20,331 nucleotides of DNA from Candidatus Heimdallarchaeota archaeon. Its GTDB lineage: Archaea > Asgardarchaeota > Heimdallarchaeia > Hodarchaeales > Hodarchaeaceae. The notes under the pieces are model-generated. The model saw nothing but the letters and a program-made list of their open reading frames with translations. It searched no databases and was not told the origin of the DNA. The stretch is from assembly GCA_019057635.1 (NCBI GenBank), contig DXJL01000139.1, positions 1-20,331 of the forward strand, read 5' to 3'. Below, one piece after another: positions 12,266 through 19,386 of this stretch; within the stretch, counting starts at the first letter, position 1, and every line of letters begins with the position of its first letter. The position numbers and the translations under genes are program-made.

Positions 12266-14047
12266 TTATATGCGTCGTGCTTGTTTCAACATCTCTTGAT
12301 GCGTGATTCTAAAATAGGTTGGTCGTCCGTGAGCACATATATTTGGGTTTTCAGTCTTGGCTAAACGAGATAGTAATTCTTGAGTTTGGCGAAAAGATAA
12401 TTGATCTCCTGATCGATAAGAGGTATGGCAGGCGATTACACTCAAGATTTTTGTGATCTCATCCTGAAAGAGTGAGGTATCAATTTTTGATGAGAGTAAT
12501 TCAAAGAATGTTTCAATATCAGTTTTTGCTAGTATTTTGGGAATCCCATGAATTTCAATTATTTCATCTTGCTTTTTAGGAACTCGTATATCGAAACCCA
12601 AGTTTGAGAGCTGTGGTATGAGCTGCTCATCTACAGAACGCTTAGTGAGTTCAAATGGTTGCAAAAGAGTTTGGATAGAAACTTTTCCTAATTTATGAAG
12701 ATTTATCAAACGTTCGAGGTTTACTCTTTCATGGGCTGCGTGGAAATCAAGAACAACCAAGTCATGAGTTGTAACATCTTCTAAAAGTATGAATTCTTTT
12801 CCTAAGGGGCCTCGATACTTCAGATCTGCGCCAATTAGATCCAAGGTTTCAGCTTTTTTTATGACATCGCTGAATTTACGATGCATTAGCGGTTGATTAC
12901 TAAATTCTATCTCGGAGGGAAGTGATTTTGAATCAAGTTGTACTTGAGACGCTTTAATTGGACTTCGGGAAGGACGGGAATCTATCTTTGACAGATTTAA
13001 TTGACTTTGTCTCTTCTTGATTGATGAACGAGTAAGCTGGGGAACTAAATCACTGGTTTTAAGACAATGATTAACAGCACCATGTACTGCAGTTCGAAGC
13101 ATCTTTTCATCATAAAACAAAACTTCACGCTTTTGAGGGTGAATATTTACATCAAATTCCTCTGGATCTATATCTAAAAAAACAAATGCACAAGGAAATT
13201 CCCCTTTCATTAGATATTCGCCATATCCTTCTTCTAATGCTTCCTGTAAGATGTTAGAAAAAATACTACGTCCATTGAGATAGAAAAACTGAAATTTTCT
13301 GTTTCGTTTGTGATTCCCTGGCTTACTGATATATCCCATTATGGATATTTTATCGCGTCCTACCACTCCTAAATTTAATAGTCCTTGTACGAGTTCTGAA
13401 CCAAATACCTTCCGAATTGGGAGCAAATAATCAGTAGATCTGATAGTATGAATAAGTTCTTTGTCATCTGCCTTGAAGACGAATGAAATCTCTGGATGTG
13501 CAACTGCATATTGAGCAACAATATCATAAATGTAGCCTTGTTCGATATAAGATTTTTTTAAGAACTTCCTTCTTACAATGAAGTTGAAAAAGAGATCTTT
13601 TACCCGAATGATGGTTCCTGAAACCGCAAGAATGTCTTCAGATATGGAGATATTATCAACATCTCCTGAAACTTTCAATTTTGTAGCAATTTCTTCTTCG
13701 GCCCTTCGACTAATAATCGTAAATCGGCACACCGAAGCAATAGAATATAGCGCCTCACCACGGAATCCCATGGTATTTATTCTAGCTAGGTCTGCTTCAG
13801 ATTCAATTTTGCTTGTAGAATGACGTTTTATTGACAAAGGTAATTCATTTGCTGCAATGCCTTTTCCATTATCCCGGATCTCAATTAGATCTTTACCCCC
13901 TTCTATAATAGTTATAGAAATTTCAGTAGCTTCTGCATCAATTGCATTTTCTATTAATTCTTTGACAACAGAGACTGGACGTTCAATTACTTCCCCCGCA
14001 GCGATTTTACTTATGACCAATGGCTCAAGGAGTTGTATCTTTGGCAA
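12266..14047 (-). CDS. mutL: DNA mismatch repair endonuclease MutL
   Basis: KIAAGEVIERP, ELIENAIDA, GFRGEAL, DVNIHPQKREV. C-terminal endonuclease motifs DFHAAHERVNLE, ACH, CAHGRP. Confidence 0.97.
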   Translation of the reverse strand: MPKIQLLEPLVISKIAAGEVIERPVSVVKELIENAIDAEATEISITIIEGGKDLIEIRDNGKGIAANELPLSIKRHSTSKIESEADLARINTMGFRGEALYSIASVCRFTIISRRAEEEIATKLKVSGDVDNISISEDILAVSGTIIRVKDLFFNFIVRRKFLKKSYIEQGYIYDIVAQYAVAHPEISFVFKADDKELIHTIRSTDYLLPIRKVFGSELVQGLLNLGVVGRDKISIMGYISKPGNHKRNRKFQFFYLNGRSIFSNILQEALEEGYGEYLMKGEFPCAFVFLDIDPEEFDVNIHPQKREVLFYDEKMLRTAVHGAVNHCLKTSDLVPQLTRSSIKKRQSQLNLSKIDSRPSRSPIKASQVQLDSKSLPSEIEFSNQPLMHRKFSDVIKKAETLDLIGADLKYRGPLGKEFILLEDVTTHDLVVLDFHAAHERVNLERLINLHKLGKVSIQTLLQPFELTKRSVDEQLIPQLSNLGFDIRVPKKQDEIIEIHGIPKILAKTDIETFFELLSSKIDTSLFQDEITKILSVIACHTSYRSGDQLSFRQTQELLSRLAKTENPNICAHGRPTYFRITHQEMLKQARRI

Positions 14048-14051
14048 TTTC

Positions 14052-16796
14052 TTATTTCTCCTCGATTTTGTGTTCTAGCTTCTTTAATTCTTCGACGAGT
14101 TCCTCAAGCTGTTTTAATGCTTCTATCGGAGTTTTATAATTAACGTCGATACCTGTATAACTCTTAAGAAAGGCTAATATCGAAAATTTCAGACTTTTCA
14201 GCTCTTCTTCATATTTGTCCTTACTAATATTTTGAGAGAAGGCTTCAGCAAGTGATAATTGTCGTGGTTGTCCTGTTTTCTCTCCTACTCCTTTTGTCAT
14301 GGGTTTATGGCTGGAAGTTGACTCTAGTTCTAGAAGTTTCTTTTGGGCATTATAAATGACACTTTGAGGAACTCCAGCCATTTTAGCCACACTAATACCA
14401 AAAGAATGGTCGGTAGCACCCTGATGTAGTTTATATAACAACATTAGCTCACCATTACGCTCTTTGGCTGTAAGGTGGAAATTTTTAACTCTAGAGGAAC
14501 GTTCTACCAGTTCACTTAATTGATGGTAGTGGGTAGCAAACAGTGTTTTACATTTGATATTAACTACAATATGTTCAGCTATTGCCCAAGCCAGAGATAA
14601 GCCATCGAATGTACTTGTTCCTCGACCCACCTCATCTAAGATAACTAAGGAGTTTTCCGTTGCATTATGTAATATATGAGATGTTTCAAGCATTTCTAGC
14701 ATAAAGGTTGATTGACCAAACGCTAAACGATCAAATGCACCTACTCTTGTGAATATCTTATCAACAATCCCAAATTCAAACGATTTAGCTGGTACCCAAG
14801 ATCCTGTTTGAGCCATTAGTATCATTAAAGCCACTTGACGAATCAAAGTTGATTTACCAGACATATTAGGGCCTGTAACTATGTGGAGCTCACCTGCTTC
14901 TAGGAGAATAGAATTGGGTATAAATCCAGTATCGTGTTGTAGATGTTCCACAACAGCATGCCGTCCCTCTTGAATCTTAATTTTTGACCCCTTAATAATA
15001 AGAGGACGACAATAATTATTCTTCAGAGCAGTAGATGCAAAACAGGTCAAAACGTCTAATTCTGCTAATAAATCTGAAAACGATTTAACTTGAGTGAGAT
15101 TCTCTGATATTTTATCACGAACTTCACAAAAAAGATTATACTCAAGATCTATTATCTTTTCGTCTAAATTCAATATTTTTTCTTCAATTTCTTTCAATCT
15201 AGGAGTAATGAATCGCTCGGCGTTAACTAGCGTTTGACGGCGAGTATAATCAGAAGGAACCGCATCTTCCCCAGCATCCCTTAATTGAGCCTTAGTGGCT
15301 TCTATATAATAACCATGAACGGAATTATACCCAAGTTTAATGTTAAAAGATGTCCGGTTCTGTTCATGAACTTCGACCTCATCAAGGATAGCTTTCTGAT
15401 TAGTTTTTAACTCGTAAAGTTCAAATAATTCCTCATGATAATCTGGTTTAATGATGCCTCCCTCAGTAATTTTTATCGGAGGGTCATCTTGAATAGCATG
15501 TGTTATCAAGTTTCTAATATCAACAAGATCCGTAGATTCAAAAGAAACAATTTTATGAGTAATTTCACATTCCAATGGACTCTGTGAGAGGAAGTGCTGT
15601 ATCTCAAGACTGGCAATTAATGAATTCATTAGTGATGAAAGATCACGTCCATTTGCTGAATGATACTTGATCTTAGAGATAAGTCTTTGGAAATCAGATA
15701 TTGAGGCAATTAAATGGTTAATGTGGTCACAGACTTCGGGATTCGAGTAAAAAGCGTGTACCGCGCCCAAACGGGCATTAATGGAAATTTTGTCTCGTAG
15801 GGGTTGTAACAGCCACCTTCTTAATAATCGAGCTCCAGTACTGGAATGAATATCAGAAAAAACGGATAAAAGACTACCTGCAACTCGTCCATCAAAAGCA
15901 TTGCCAATTATTTCCAAATTACGTTGAGTGTTTGAATCCAGAATTAGAGAAGAACTATCGTCCAACAGTTTCATACTAGTCAGATTTGAAGGATAATCTG
16001 GTTTTAACATAGCTAAATGGGATATTACGGCGCCAGTAGCTCTAATTCCCTCTTCCATCAATGCACATCCGAAACCTGCGAGAGATTTAACTTGAAAATG
16101 ATCAAGAAGAGTTTCTCTAGCAGTTTGAAGATTGAACAGTGTTTCATTAACAGGAGAGATCATAGTATTGGATGAAAGGTTAATAACATTTTCAATTGAA
16201 AGTTGCAGATCCCCTCTCAGATTAGTTTCTGGTATAATAATTTCTTTGGGGTGGAATCGAGTAAATTCATCTTTAAATCGTTCGATAACATTTTTGTTAA
16301 TTTCTGATATCAACAATTCACCTGTTGAAATGTCAACGAGTGATAAACCAATATTTTTCTTACGTTCATTAATAACTAAACTTAACATAAAATTATTCAT
16401 TGTATCATCTAAAATTGAGGATTCAAAGACAGTTCCTGGAGTTACTACCCGTGTAACTCCTCTTTTAACAATTTTCCCTGACGGAAGCTTTTTTGCATCC
16501 TCTAATTGGTCAACTATGGCCACTTTATATCCATTATCAACTAGTTTCTTGAGATATGAATCGATTGCCTTTACTGGTACTCCTGCTAACGGTATTCTTG
16601 CGTTTCCACCCCCCATACTCCTAGAAGTAAGAGTAATATTTAATACTTTAGAAATACACTTTGCATCTTCATTGAAAGCCTCGTAAAAATCACCTAACTG
16701 AAAAAATACAATAGTATCTGGAAAATCCTTCTTGATATCCGCATATTGTGTCATTGCAGTGGTTTTTGTGCGGGGTTTAGAGCGCATTGAATTCAA
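14052..16796 (-). CDS. mutS: DNA mismatch repair protein MutS (MutS1 type)
   Basis: GDFYE mismatch-binding motif, GPNMSGKS, STFM, DEVGRGTS, FATHY, C-terminal HTH. Alternative start ATG16787. Confidence 0.97.
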   Translation of the reverse strand: MNSMRSKPRTKTTAMTQYADIKKDFPDTIVFFQLGDFYEAFNEDAKCISKVLNITLTSRSMGGGNARIPLAGVPVKAIDSYLKKLVDNGYKVAIVDQLEDAKKLPSGKIVKRGVTRVVTPGTVFESSILDDTMNNFMLSLVINERKKNIGLSLVDISTGELLISEINKNVIERFKDEFTRFHPKEIIIPETNLRGDLQLSIENVINLSSNTMISPVNETLFNLQTARETLLDHFQVKSLAGFGCALMEEGIRATGAVISHLAMLKPDYPSNLTSMKLLDDSSSLILDSNTQRNLEIIGNAFDGRVAGSLLSVFSDIHSSTGARLLRRWLLQPLRDKISINARLGAVHAFYSNPEVCDHINHLIASISDFQRLISKIKYHSANGRDLSSLMNSLIASLEIQHFLSQSPLECEITHKIVSFESTDLVDIRNLITHAIQDDPPIKITEGGIIKPDYHEELFELYELKTNQKAILDEVEVHEQNRTSFNIKLGYNSVHGYYIEATKAQLRDAGEDAVPSDYTRRQTLVNAERFITPRLKEIEEKILNLDEKIIDLEYNLFCEVRDKISENLTQVKSFSDLLAELDVLTCFASTALKNNYCRPLIIKGSKIKIQEGRHAVVEHLQHDTGFIPNSILLEAGELHIVTGPNMSGKSTLIRQVALMILMAQTGSWVPAKSFEFGIVDKIFTRVGAFDRLAFGQSTFMLEMLETSHILHNATENSLVILDEVGRGTSTFDGLSLAWAIAEHIVVNIKCKTLFATHYHQLSELVERSSRVKNFHLTAKERNGELMLLYKLHQGATDHSFGISVAKMAGVPQSVIYNAQKKLLELESTSSHKPMTKGVGEKTGQPRQLSLAEAFSQNISKDKYEEELKSLKFSILAFLKSYTGIDVNYKTPIEALKQLEELVEELKKLEHKIEEK

Positions 16797-16971
16797 TTCA
16801 CGTATTTTTCTGATATACTAAGTTTTAGCTAAATGGAAAATATTTAATCATAATTATTAAATCTTGCGTCTGATAAAGGGAAAATTACTCTTGTCCTTGA
16901 ATATCTCCTTAGGAATAAGTAAGGAACAAGAGAGATAGAAAAAATTTCAGATACTTAGAAAAAAAATCCTT

Positions 16972-17056
16972 GCGGGGATTTCCCAGCCTGGTCAAAGGAG
17001 CTAGGTTCAGGTCCTAGTCGTGTAGACGTTCGTGAGTTCAAATCTCACTCCCCGCA
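16972..17056 (+). tRNA. tRNA-Leu(CAG), intronless
   Basis: Acceptor GCGGGGA/TCCCCGC, discriminator A. Anticodon arm CTAGG-TTCAGGT-CCTAG, long variable arm, T-arm GTGAG-TTCAAAT-CTCAC. Confidence 0.96.
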
Positions 17057-17110
17057 TCCTTAACACATAATAAAGCCGAGGTAGCCAAGCGGTACGGCGC
17101 CAGACTCGAG

Positions 17111-17130
17111 TTATTGCAATATAACGAGAG
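17111..17130 (+). other. tRNA-Ser canonical anticodon-loop intron (37/38), 20 nt
   Basis: Central helix CTCG(17105-17108)/CGAG(17125-17128), 3' bulge AGA. Splicing gives the loop CTCGAGA. Confidence 0.88.
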
Positions 17131-17161
17131 ATCTGGTGTGCTCTGCACACGTGGGTTCAAG

Positions 17162-17192
17162 TTAAAGTATCGTCATTGATACTTCATGAAAT
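17162..17192 (+). other. tRNA-Ser T-loop intron (59/60), 31 nt
   Basis: BHB with TTCA(17156-17159)/TGAA(17187-17190), bulges AGT and ATT, inner stem AAGTATCG/TGATACTT. Splicing restores TTCAAGT. Confidence 0.9.
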
Positions 17193-17437
17193 TCCCACCC
17201 TCGGCGCTCCCTAGGTATTCGAGATACGATACTCGAAAAACAAACTTTGTTTTCTTGCCGTAAGGTAACACACTTAAGGGGCTTACAGAGACACCTTCTT
17301 TTGCATATATAAAGAAAAATCTTGGGTGAGCAGAAAAAACTCGGAAGAATTTCCCTGCAAAAATAACTAGGAGAAAATCCGAATAATCCAGATTAAAATA
17401 TCTTTATAAGAGAATTATTTAATTTATTACTACTACA

Positions 17438-18319
17438 TTGGTGATTGTTTTGGATATCGAAAATGCGATTTCAGAGATACAGGAGAAGTTTGGGGTAGTT
17501 GGACGAGTACGTACTCTTCGAAAACTCATCCTTGGCAAAATGGCAGGCAAGCATATCATAATAGAGGGACCAGTTGGGGTTGGAAAAACCACATTGGCCC
17601 ACGCGGTGGCAGCCTACTTTGATCAAGGATTTATTCGTATCGATGGGGATGAAAGATATACCGAAAGTAAGCTTGTCGGATATTTTGAACCCCCCCTCGT
17701 TGTAGAAAAAGGGTGGATTTGGGATGCGTTTGTACCGGGGCCCCTAACATTAGCAATGAAAAATGGTTCAATATTGTTTATTAATGAAGCAAATAGACTA
17801 ATCGAAGGAACACAAAATGTCCTATTACCGACCATGGATGAGGGGATACTCATTATACCTAAACTGGGATCAATAAAAGCTATTGAAGGATTTTTAGTTG
17901 TAGCTACACAAAACCCTGAATCTTATATAGGAACAACAGTTCTTTCAGAGGCTTTAAAAGATCGATTTGTATGGATAAAACTAGAACATCAAGGATATGA
18001 GCAGGAACTTGACATTGTTAAACAACAATCTGGACTGGATGAAAAGGATCTTTTGATCGGTGAAACGGCAACAAAAATAACTCGTGCAACTCGTAACCAC
18101 ACAGATATTCGAAGAGGTTCCTCCATTCGAGGTGCAATTGATTTAGCAAAAATTTTGAGTTTAGTTCAAAGCTTAACTCTTGAAACGGTTTCAGAATTAT
18201 CTATCATGACACTAGCAACAAAAATCGAACTGGAAGATGGTGTAGAGAGACCCATCGAAGAAATAATTCATGAAATCGTAGAAGCGATACTCTCTGGGGA
18301 TGAAGATCGTTTTTTATAA
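17438..18319 (+). CDS. MoxR-like AAA+ ATPase
   Basis: Walker A GPVGVGKT, FVPGPL, Walker B variant LFINEANR, ATQNP, LSEALKDRF (Arg finger), SIRG (sensor 2). Confidence 0.92.
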   Translation: MVIVLDIENAISEIQEKFGVVGRVRTLRKLILGKMAGKHIIIEGPVGVGKTTLAHAVAAYFDQGFIRIDGDERYTESKLVGYFEPPLVVEKGWIWDAFVPGPLTLAMKNGSILFINEANRLIEGTQNVLLPTMDEGILIIPKLGSIKAIEGFLVVATQNPESYIGTTVLSEALKDRFVWIKLEHQGYEQELDIVKQQSGLDEKDLLIGETATKITRATRNHTDIRRGSSIRGAIDLAKILSLVQSLTLETVSELSIMTLATKIELEDGVERPIEEIIHEIVEAILSGDEDRFL

Positions 18320-18344
18320 AAAAATCCCGAGTAGCCGCTCGGGA
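18310..18344 (+). promoter_or_regulatory. Candidate programmed -1 ribosomal frameshift signal
   Basis: T_TTT_TTA heptamer (18310-18316) in the AAA+ frame immediately before its TAA stop, then an 8-nt spacer and the hairpin TCCCGAG(18325-18331)/CTCGGGA(18338-18344). The -1 frame is the vWA frame. Confidence 0.72.
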
Positions 18345-19386
18345 ATATAAAAAGAACATTCGTCTCTTCGGTAGACTCAATATGGAGGATCTAGCTGATG
18401 CAGCTATTGCTGCTGGAGATGCATTACCAAAGTTGGATAATTTAGATATTGCTAGTATAGAGCGCTTAACTGAGTCAGCTATTGAACATGAAAATTTGCC
18501 AGCCTTGATGTCTCTCGCAAAAATCAATAAATATGCAGTCTCTAATAGTTTAAATCCAGATCGTCTGGTTTCACTAGGTCGAGTAGCTGGATCAGGAGGG
18601 GTGTATACTCCGAGATTATTCTTTGTGATGCGGGGTGTCATGGATAAGAAGCGTCGTAAGATCTTAAAACGCTTAACCCGTACATCAATCCTCAAATTAT
18701 CTTTGAGAATAGCCTCTGAAGGCCTCAGGGGAGATCTGCCAGTCAGGGGAGAATTTAAACCTGACTCCGACTTCGATTTAGAGGCAACATTGGAGCAAAT
18801 ATTGGAAAGATATCCCGCTGGTATCCCTAGACTCGTTAATAAAGATATAGTCGGAATAGAACGGCGTGAAAGAAAGAAAAACGGGGTATTGATCTTAGAT
18901 GCTAGTGGATCGATGATGGGAGAACGCAATATCAATGCAGCATTATCAGCGGCAGTCATGGCTTTTTCTATGCGTAAAGATCAGTTCGGAGTGGTAGCAT
19001 TCAACACCAAAGGGTTTCTTATAAAAGGAATCAAAGATGAACTTAAGATCGAAGAAATTATGGATAAAATCCTTGATTTAGAAGCAGTTGGATATACTAA
19101 TATTGAGGATGGACTACGACATGGTGCTATGCAGATCAAGACCATGAAATCCCGTTATAAATGGGCAATACTACTAACTGATGGTGCCTATAACAAAGGA
19201 GATGACCCTCGATACTTATGTCGGCAATTTGAAAAACTTCATGTCATTAATTTACCTGGAGGTAAAAAATGGGGTGAGAAAGTATGTCAAGATCTGGCTC
19301 GGCTGGGTGGGGGCCGTTATGTGGTGGTCCGCAATTATCATGAGGTACCTCGGGCATTGATGAAAATACTCAGAAGTCCCTGGTAA
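18316..19386 (+). CDS. vWA (MIDAS) domain protein, partner of or frameshift fusion with the upstream AAA+ ATPase
   Basis: MIDAS DASGS, GYTNI, LLTDG; DFDLEATLEQ motif. The first ATG is at 18382, but the frame is open back to 18304 (RSFFIKKSRVAAREYKKNIRLFGRLN). Confidence 0.88.
   Translation: MKKSRVAAREYKKNIRLFGRLNMEDLADAAIAAGDALPKLDNLDIASIERLTESAIEHENLPALMSLAKINKYAVSNSLNPDRLVSLGRVAGSGGVYTPRLFFVMRGVMDKKRRKILKRLTRTSILKLSLRIASEGLRGDLPVRGEFKPDSDFDLEATLEQILERYPAGIPRLVNKDIVGIERRERKKNGVLILDASGSMMGERNINAALSAAVMAFSMRKDQFGVVAFNTKGFLIKGIKDELKIEEIMDKILDLEAVGYTNIEDGLRHGAMQIKTMKSRYKWAILLTDGAYNKGDDPRYLCRQFEKLHVINLPGGKKWGEKVCQDLARLGGGRYVVVRNYHEVPRALMKILRSPW

Follow-up and report, generated by a model that had tools for sequence, protein, structure and literature searches.

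A candidate programmed -1 frameshift site joining a NorQ-like AAA+ ATPase to a vWA domain in Asgard archaea

How should a locus be read in which the open reading frame (ORF) of an AAA+ ATPase ends inside a second, overlapping frame that has no conserved start codon of its own and continues into a von Willebrand factor A (vWA) domain with a metal ion-dependent adhesion site (MIDAS)? Such a locus is found in the window analyzed here, i.e., the whole 20,331-nucleotide stretch of contig DXJL01000139.1 from the Candidatus Heimdallarchaeota archaeon (Heimdallarchaeia; Hodarchaeales) assembly GCA_019057635.1, and it raises the question of whether the two frames are separate genes or a single one whose halves are joined during expression. 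The original prediction, drawn from the letters of this stretch, was that a -1 shift at the heptamer U_UUU_UUA, located before a hairpin, yields a fusion of about 649 aa in addition to a free AAA+ protein of 293 aa. Comparison with related loci supports this proposal and, judging from sequence, the locus is likely to be a programmed -1 ribosomal frameshift site and functionally one gene, encoding a remodelling ATPase similar to NorQ/NorD.

According to this reading, most ribosomes would decode CGU UUU UUA, reach the UAA, and release the 293-aa AAA+ protein. Some of them would pause at the hairpin that starts 8 nt downstream, and the tRNA-Phe in the P site and the tRNA-Leu in the A site would then slip back by one base on U_UUU_UUA. 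The shifted ribosomes would go on to read a flexible linker of 22 codons, followed by the helical and the vWA/MIDAS domains, to give a fusion with the predicted junction ...EDRF-L-IKKSR... and a predicted length of 293 + 22 + 334 = 649 aa.

Anatomy of the junction

The elements of the locus are collected in Table 1. The sequence features first described for it, namely the end of the AAA+ ORF, the phase of the heptamer, the 8-nt spacer, the stem, the open -1 frame, and the lack of a clear Shine-Dalgarno sequence, all hold on reinspection.

Table 1. Features of the AAA+/vWA junction, with positions numbered along the window
Feature	Position	Strand	Description
AAA+ ORF	17438-18319	+	293 aa, TTG start; 3' end CGT TTT TTA TAA, protein end ...EDRFL-stop; proposed termination product
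Slippery heptamer U_UUU_UUA	18310-18316	+	X_XXY_YYZ phase relative to the AAA+ frame; proposed site of tandem -1 tRNA slippage
Zero-frame stop TAA	18317-18319	+	abuts the 3' end of the heptamer; also nt 1-3 of the spacer
Spacer between heptamer and hairpin	18317-18324	+	8 nt
Predicted stimulatory hairpin	18325-18344	+	TCCCGAG (18325-18331) / CTCGGGA (18338-18344), plus a U-G pair (18332/18337); loop AGCC
Linker, in the -1 frame only	18316-18381	+	22 codons, IKKSRVAAREYKKNIRLFGRLN; without ATG, GTG, or TTG
vWA/MIDAS part	18382-19386	+	334 aa from a non-conserved ATG; helical domain, then vWA fold with DxSxS...T...D

The -1 frame starts at 18304, right after a TGA (18301-18303), and runs without a stop up to the ATG at 18382, upstream of which no GGAGG-like motif was seen. 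Folding of the region with RNAfold predicts exactly the 8-bp hairpin of Table 1: the 50-nt segment that contains it has a minimum free energy of -13.4 kcal/mol (z -3.9), and the longer segment 18305-18385 has a z of -3.03, with an equally good fold in 1 of 200 shuffles. The heptamer, taken by itself, is not beyond chance in this AT-rich window, where in-phase X_XXY_YYZ heptamers (Y = A/T) number 44 in ~5,800 codons of long ORFs; what makes it significant is where it lies and how well it is conserved. The A7 run was also considered as a slippage site and rejected, being located past the zero-frame stop and variable among relatives.

Conservation of the junction

The closest relatives provide a genus-level set of 36 junctions with at least 80% identity, 19 of them unique, and in all 19 both the heptamer and its phase are unchanged. 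The synonymous sites of the codons CGT, TTT, and TTA are invariant across these junctions, against variation at 24 of the 25 third positions just upstream. In the linker, the variable sites number 8/22, 7/22, and 20/22 for the first, second, and third codon positions of the -1 frame; the variation is thus found chiefly at third positions, which indicates translation in that frame. As had been anticipated, protein-level conservation thus extends to the segment that precedes ATG 18382. Only two linker codons, TCC and CGG, keep invariant third positions, and both are located in the arms of the stem. Both halves of the pair are under purifying selection. The column of the ATG itself reads CTG, CTA, TTA, ATA, or TTG in orthologs, and no ATG, GTG, or TTG precedes the conserved region in 13 of the 74 unique junctions, including 6 of the 18 from the window's own group.

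Further out, the comparison covered 81 loci, i.e., that of the window and 80 from species-representative genomes, of which 78 hold both halves; the other three (L060, L062, and L096) were left out because they lie at contig ends and the AAA+ half is missing. Relative to the AAA+ frame, the vWA frame stands at -1 in 69 of the 78 loci, at +1 in 9, and in frame in none, and in every case it is already open 13-118 nt ahead of the AAA+ stop. Another 20 loci, taken from 15 other Asgard families, divide into 19 at -1 and one at +1. Orthologs of the vWA part occur in 149 of the 251 sampled genomes of the phylum, with open frames of ~360-400 aa nearly everywhere, and fused vWA open frames (668-732 aa) are present in one family alone of this sample.

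With identical junction sequences counted once, here as in the start-codon and folding tallies, there are 90 unique junctions, 80 of them at -1. A canonical in-phase heptamer is present in 63 of these 80, the kinds being UUUUUUC (23), UUUUUUA (22), AAAUUUU (7), GGGUUUU (4), UUUUUUU (4), AAAUUUC (2), and AAACCCU (1), and 53 of the 63 have a stop immediately after it. The expected conservation of the -1 phase, the heptamer, and the spacer is borne out in related loci. Downstream, the RNA of 39 out of 63 unique -1 junctions folds within the best 10% of the windows of its own locus, with z < -2 in 26, and the stems differ in sequence between distant lineages, an example being the 9-bp stem in L059 and L121. 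No Rfam family matched the junction, the sole hit being at chance level (E 0.97) and well under the gathering score.

The +1 loci belong to two lineages: nine of them (L083, L092, L093, L098, L100, L102, L108, L111, and L118) come from one Heimdall family, and L157 is separate, in another family. Their junction reads AAG TTT TTT CGG (CGA in L157), with an Arg codon of low usage at the A site; CGG accounts for 4.6% of the Arg codons in the +1 loci, in a count of ORFs that includes some spurious ones. The six codons before the first ATG vary at 2/6, 3/6, and 6/6 of the successive positions of the +1 frame, small numbers as these are, and the +1 group has no outstanding downstream structure (z < -2 in 0/9). 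In these lineages, the shift would go from UUU to UUC while the A site holds this rare codon, and the loci are a candidate for a +1 frameshift that replaced the -1 one.

The same genome holds, outside the window, a paralogous AAA_5/vWA pair (locus L022, 2230-2300; contig C72 of G000, ~72,810-72,880), which is again in -1 phase, with an overlap of 13 nt. Its junction consists of an in-phase A_AAA_AAC, a TAG directly after it, and then a GC-rich hairpin, and the -1 frame runs for ~55 codons before any start codon could occur in it. Among its relatives, from which L132 and L133 were dropped because they do not match the paralog, the phase is -1 in 18 of 18 loci, and these share A-rich heptamers, the stop, and a nearly invariant GCGGGAC/GTCCCGC stem. 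As far as sequences can do so, comparison of all these loci shows a recoding architecture under selection, with a linker translated in the -1 frame and a fused polypeptide as the conserved functional unit.

Three side observations concern individual loci. In a Heimdall clade without a clear hairpin (L063-L075, L081, L089, and L097), a purine tract, GAGGGAGGAG or GAGGAGGGGGA, which encodes LEEGG, lies a few nt past the stop, and an ATG with GAGG before it is found ~60 nt downstream; the vWA part of this clade may be expressed in two ways. In L019/L057, a 61-64% identical ortholog on a 2.8-kb contig, T_TTT_TTA is kept, the hairpin is weak (z -0.7), and the AAA+ half matches in two frames, which reflects an error of assembly or else an additional break in the frame. 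Finally, L055, L073, L098, and L056 come from records of metagenome-assembled genomes (MAGs) titled Thorarchaeota, Bathyarchaeia, or Hermodarchaeota, and their genes are placed among Heimdall/Hod sequences in the tree, a mismatch that suggests mislabelled or mixed bins.

The protein pair and its fused relatives

The AAA+ half matches the Pfam family AAA_5 at 66.1 bits (cutoff 22), which assigns it to the MoxR class, and among sequences of the PDB its best single-domain match is NorQ, at 50.5 bits. The vWA half exceeds the Pfam cutoffs of VWA_2, VWA, and VWA_CoxE, and its MIDAS motif is intact, with the residues D173, S175, S177, T239, and D267 invariant in 15 sequences; the search of its profile against PDB sequences returned weak matches to generic vWA proteins and nothing more.

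The fold was compared on the AlphaFold model of a fused ortholog, P0002, rather than on the window's own protein. In this model (mean predicted local distance difference test score 85), an AAA+ module (1-289) is connected by a disordered linker (295-317) to the helical domain and the vWA fold. The model matches NorQ (9qh9_C) with a template modeling (TM) score of 0.86 by target and a root-mean-square deviation of 2.8 Å over 266 columns, CbbQ (6l1q_A) with a TM score of 0.78, and chain 9qhe_G of the NorQD complex with a TM score of 0.59. The equivalent of the frameshift site is placed at the start of the disordered linker, just past the last AAA+ helix; in this model, the predicted splice of the AAA+ and vWA parts thus falls exactly at the domain boundary, where the flexible linker begins.

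The pair is NorQ/NorD-like, within the MoxR class, and not ChlD. Membership in ChlD/BchD/CobT was rejected on the scores for PF01078 (17.6 vs 20.3), TIGR02031, the BchD-ChlD model (26.7 vs 499.55), and TIGR02442 (28.7 and 27 vs 779.45), and the fused homologs likewise stay under the cutoffs of the ChlD-type models. The GvpN equivalog TIGR02640 was also rejected (86.2 bits vs a cutoff of 266.8), so that the name GvpN, carried by some homologs in their source records, is a loose one. Within the 20-kb window, the only part of the genome searched for them, neither a ChlH/CobN partner nor tetrapyrrole genes were seen, and the window has no cNOR, Rubisco, or other client gene near the pair.

The usual form of the Walker B motif is Asp-Glu. 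Here, it reads ...ILFINEANR, with Asn-Glu (window 17760-17790, AAA+ residues ~110-120), and both the N and the E are invariant across 60 fused homologs (N121 and E122 of P0002).

Orthologs fused in frame, which the original prediction proposed to look for, do exist: a search for longer proteins returned 333 in-frame AAA_5-vWA proteins at E <= 1e-10, some of them with the source names Bathyarchaeia, Nitrososphaerales, Methanomethylicia, Njordarchaeales, and Promethearchaeota. The closest among the matches listed have 62-66% identity and 647-655 aa, and in the orthologs P0002-P0005 the linker motif IRLFG(K/R) lies within one continuous chain. In a tree built by a quick search from the AAA+ part alone, with 59 of the 120 listed fused proteins, the frameshifted forms belong to one well-supported clade of 86 rows (62 at -1, 9 at +1, and 15 fused), which is nested among fused forms and requires at least 5 changes of state. 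This nesting argues that what is conserved as a functional unit is the fused polypeptide, with the frameshift as a derived way to also make the AAA+ part alone. The earlier statement that MoxR ATPases and their vWA partners are normally separate genes is correct for NorQ/NorD and CbbQ/CbbO, but in other archaea the in-frame fusion is the common form of this family, and the frameshifted form is nested within it.

Alternative explanations and known systems

Several observations weigh against a programmed ribosomal -1 shift. Seventeen of the 80 -1 junctions lack a canonical heptamer, and in all of them the stop comes either right after U_UUU or one codon later, which would permit slippage in the P site. 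In the folding comparison, with 50 nt examined, 24 of 63 -1 junctions rank above 0.10 and thus have no hairpin that stands out, mainly those of one Heimdallarchaeaceae-like clade. Formal covariation of the stem at the genus level is not significant, since 92 of 500 shuffles score as high; in alignment A2, the pair 27-36 (AU13/GU2/GC2) is the sole covarying one, and 5 of the 10 pairs never vary. The structural support was therefore rested on the invariance of synonymous sites and on the folds of distant lineages, where hairpins of a different sequence occupy this position. Moreover, ATG 18382 leaves room for some independent initiation of the vWA part alone, and a large Heimdall clade keeps, at the aligned position, an ATG preceded by GAGG. 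The counts come from related genomes and not from independent samples. The contig data described below are blind to minor RNA species, and the RNA library among them may contain DNA; its contig does not by itself demonstrate transcription.

A first alternative places the slip in transcription: the polymerase would stutter on the T6 run, a single added U would produce an in-frame fusion mRNA (one U fewer in the +1 lineages), and the ribosome would decode it normally. The site is indeed a homopolymeric U6 run, which also counts against a ribosomal shift, as does the occurrence of both the -1 and the +1 phase at T6 runs (TTT TTT CGG/CGA in the latter), for which U insertion vs deletion would be a single mechanism; the protein product would be almost identical. 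Efficient polymerase slippage requires longer homopolymer runs (PMC1088944), however, and many orthologs have T4 only or other sites (GAT TTT CAT TAA, G_GGT_TTT, A_AAT_TTC, and A_AAC_CCT) that are far too short. In addition, the motif is always in the phase suited to tRNA slippage, the hairpins lie 5-9 nt downstream, as in the geometry of ribosomal -1 frameshifting, and a contig from the RNA library X6 spans the site without an inserted letter, a weak point because contigs drop minor variants. On balance, transcriptional slippage appears unlikely.

Another alternative is that of two ordinary genes, with the vWA protein starting at ATG 18382 or by re-initiation, no fusion being made, and the heptamer and hairpin being coincidental or parts of a terminator or attenuator. 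The ATG does exist in the window genome, an ATG with GAGG ahead of it is kept at this position by the large Heimdall clade, archaeal transcription terminates at oligo-T runs, and NorQ/NorD and CbbQ/CbbO are encoded by separate genes. The 22 codons before the ATG, however, hold no start codon and evolve as coding sequence of the -1 frame; close relatives have CTG, CTA, TTA, or ATA in place of the ATG, and 13 of 74 junctions contain no canonical start; and the IRLFG motif is also found inside the fused orthologs. In addition, the phase of the 78 loci (69, 9, and 0) is never 0 and never random. These points make two independent genes quite improbable.

The possibility that the gene is really a fused one, broken by an indel from sequencing or assembly, or else a pseudogene, can be set aside with near certainty: homopolymers such as T6 and A7 are error-prone and fused orthologs exist, but the out-of-frame layout recurs in 78/78 related loci of many independent assemblies and in 20/20 further loci, contigs of independent runs reproduce the junction without gaps, and both halves are under purifying selection. 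The lengths of T6 and A7, on which the original prediction depended, show no indel in contigs from the independent DNA runs X2 and X3/X4 and from the RNA library X6 (18254-18453), which excludes an assembly indel. The pieces from X3 are identical to those from X4, and the two may represent a single data set. All of these are short contigs, with large parts of both ORFs uncovered in X3, X4, and X6, a gap that carries no information.

With the programmed -1 frameshift as the favoured reading, the slippage would be ribosomal, and the hairpin and the adjacent stop would presumably stimulate it. The signal can be set beside several known systems. That of HIV-1 gag-pol consists of U_UUU_UUA, a spacer, and a stem-loop; the heptamer here is identical, the 8-nt spacer and the G+C-rich hairpin are similar, and, as in the retroviral case, a shorter and a longer protein are predicted to be made in constant proportion. 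Unlike gag-pol, this is a cellular archaeal gene whose zero-frame stop abuts the heptamer, and there is no homology between the two.

Midasin/Rea1 and VWA8 also combine the AAA_5 family with a C-terminal MIDAS/vWA domain, but midasin has six tandem AAA modules per chain, compared to one here. A specific relationship to midasin was rejected: although it is the top PDB sequence match (109.5 bits), this score sums up to six AAA modules, the best single one reaching 28.8 vs 50.5 for NorQ, and no midasin chain appears among the fold matches listed. The echo of midasin/VWA8 suggested at first is thus weak, the best single-domain and fold matches being NorQ and CbbQ.

NorQ/NorD and CbbQ/CbbO resemble the present pair, whose vWA part has an intact MIDAS motif, in giving the best fold matches of the fused ortholog model, and differ from it in that they are separate genes with their own starts; here, the halves are joined by putative recoding or, in other archaea, fused outright. 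In the NorQ/NorD complex, a NorQ hexamer binds one NorD monomer.

The closest precedent is fs-chlD, i.e., the chelatase genes in which programmed -1 frameshifting between AAA+ and vWA halves, mentioned in the original prediction, is indeed published, with efficiencies of 10-63% in E. coli reporters (PMC3711429). According to Antonov et al. 2013 (PMC3711429) and Kuznetsov et al. 2022 (PMC9227772), fs-chlD resembles the present locus as follows: an AAA+-only small subunit arises by termination and an AAA+-vWA medium subunit by a shift between the two domains; this shift is usually -1 but in some cases +1, at AT-rich slippery sites with downstream RNA structure; the gene is annotated as two adjacent ones; and in-frame fused homologs exist elsewhere, with fs-chlD cases in both archaea (Methanocaldococcus and Methanococcus) and bacteria. 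In contrast, the AAA+ part here is of the AAA_5 family (NorQ/CbbQ/GvpN-like) and not ChlI-type, and the arrangement is wide across the sampled Asgard phylum, in two paralogous families. Moreover, the tested chlD sites are poly-A runs of 9-11 A (PMC3711429), unlike the U_UUU_UUN with adjacent stop and hairpin found here. For archaea, a 2021 review (PMC8211752) gives Saccharolobus fucA1 as the one experimentally demonstrated case of programmed -1 ribosomal frameshifting; fucA1 has another heptamer, its shift restores a single enzyme and adds no domain, and the two genes are not homologous.

The literature searches returned no report that links frameshifting to Asgard, Heimdall, or MoxR-vWA genes; Antonov 2020 and the supplements, which were outside these searches, may list overlapping archaeal fs-chlD genes. 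A preprint on photosynthesis in Heimdallarchaeota has no mention of chelatase or frameshift. An AAA+/vWA frameshift is known from chelatase genes, and what appears to be new is its proposed presence in another family, with other signals, and its wide occurrence in sampled Asgard genomes.

By analogy with NorQ6:NorD1 and with chlD, the frameshift may serve to keep free subunits and those that carry a vWA domain in constant proportion within a hexameric ring. In a broader and tentative interpretation, which we hold with more doubt than confidence, the locus would be an ancient recoding switch, wide in the sampled Asgard phylum, that was kept through changes of heptamer, of hairpin, and of direction (-1, +1 at UUU_CGG/CGA, and reversion to an in-frame gene) and was duplicated into a paralogous family, its proposed role being to set the ratio of free to MIDAS-tethered AAA+ subunits at the ribosome. 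If such a switch operated at a frameshift rate near one in six, a single gene would give a ring like NorQ6:NorD1.

Programmed frameshifting is barely documented in archaea, and the ~90 distinct junctions from many Asgard families, among which the slippery motif and the hairpin sequence differ and to which a +1 form and the cassette of the paralog can be added, represent a natural mutational series for the study of frameshifting by archaeal, eukaryote-like ribosomes. They also offer a testable idea of how MoxR-vWA machines set the stoichiometry of their subunits, in parallel to chlD, and a marker for the evolution of gene structure (fused, -1, and +1) in the lineage closest to eukaryotes. In practical terms, annotation should be corrected for loci of Heimdallarchaeia and related MAGs now called two genes, an AAA family ATPase and a start-less vWA protein. 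Should the frameshift be inefficient or absent, the conserved start-less vWA frame itself would need a new explanation.

Regarding the surroundings of the locus, the window is archaeal, and the neighbours within it include genes for the A-type ATPase subunit A, an S-adenosylhomocysteine hydrolase, a NOG1-type GTPase, MutL, MutS, and a GDPD phosphodiesterase. The MutL and MutS genes are of bacterial type, in an archaeon, and stand back to back at 12266-16796 on the minus strand; this block diverges from the AAA+ gene, from which it is separated by a spacer of 640 nt (16797-17437).

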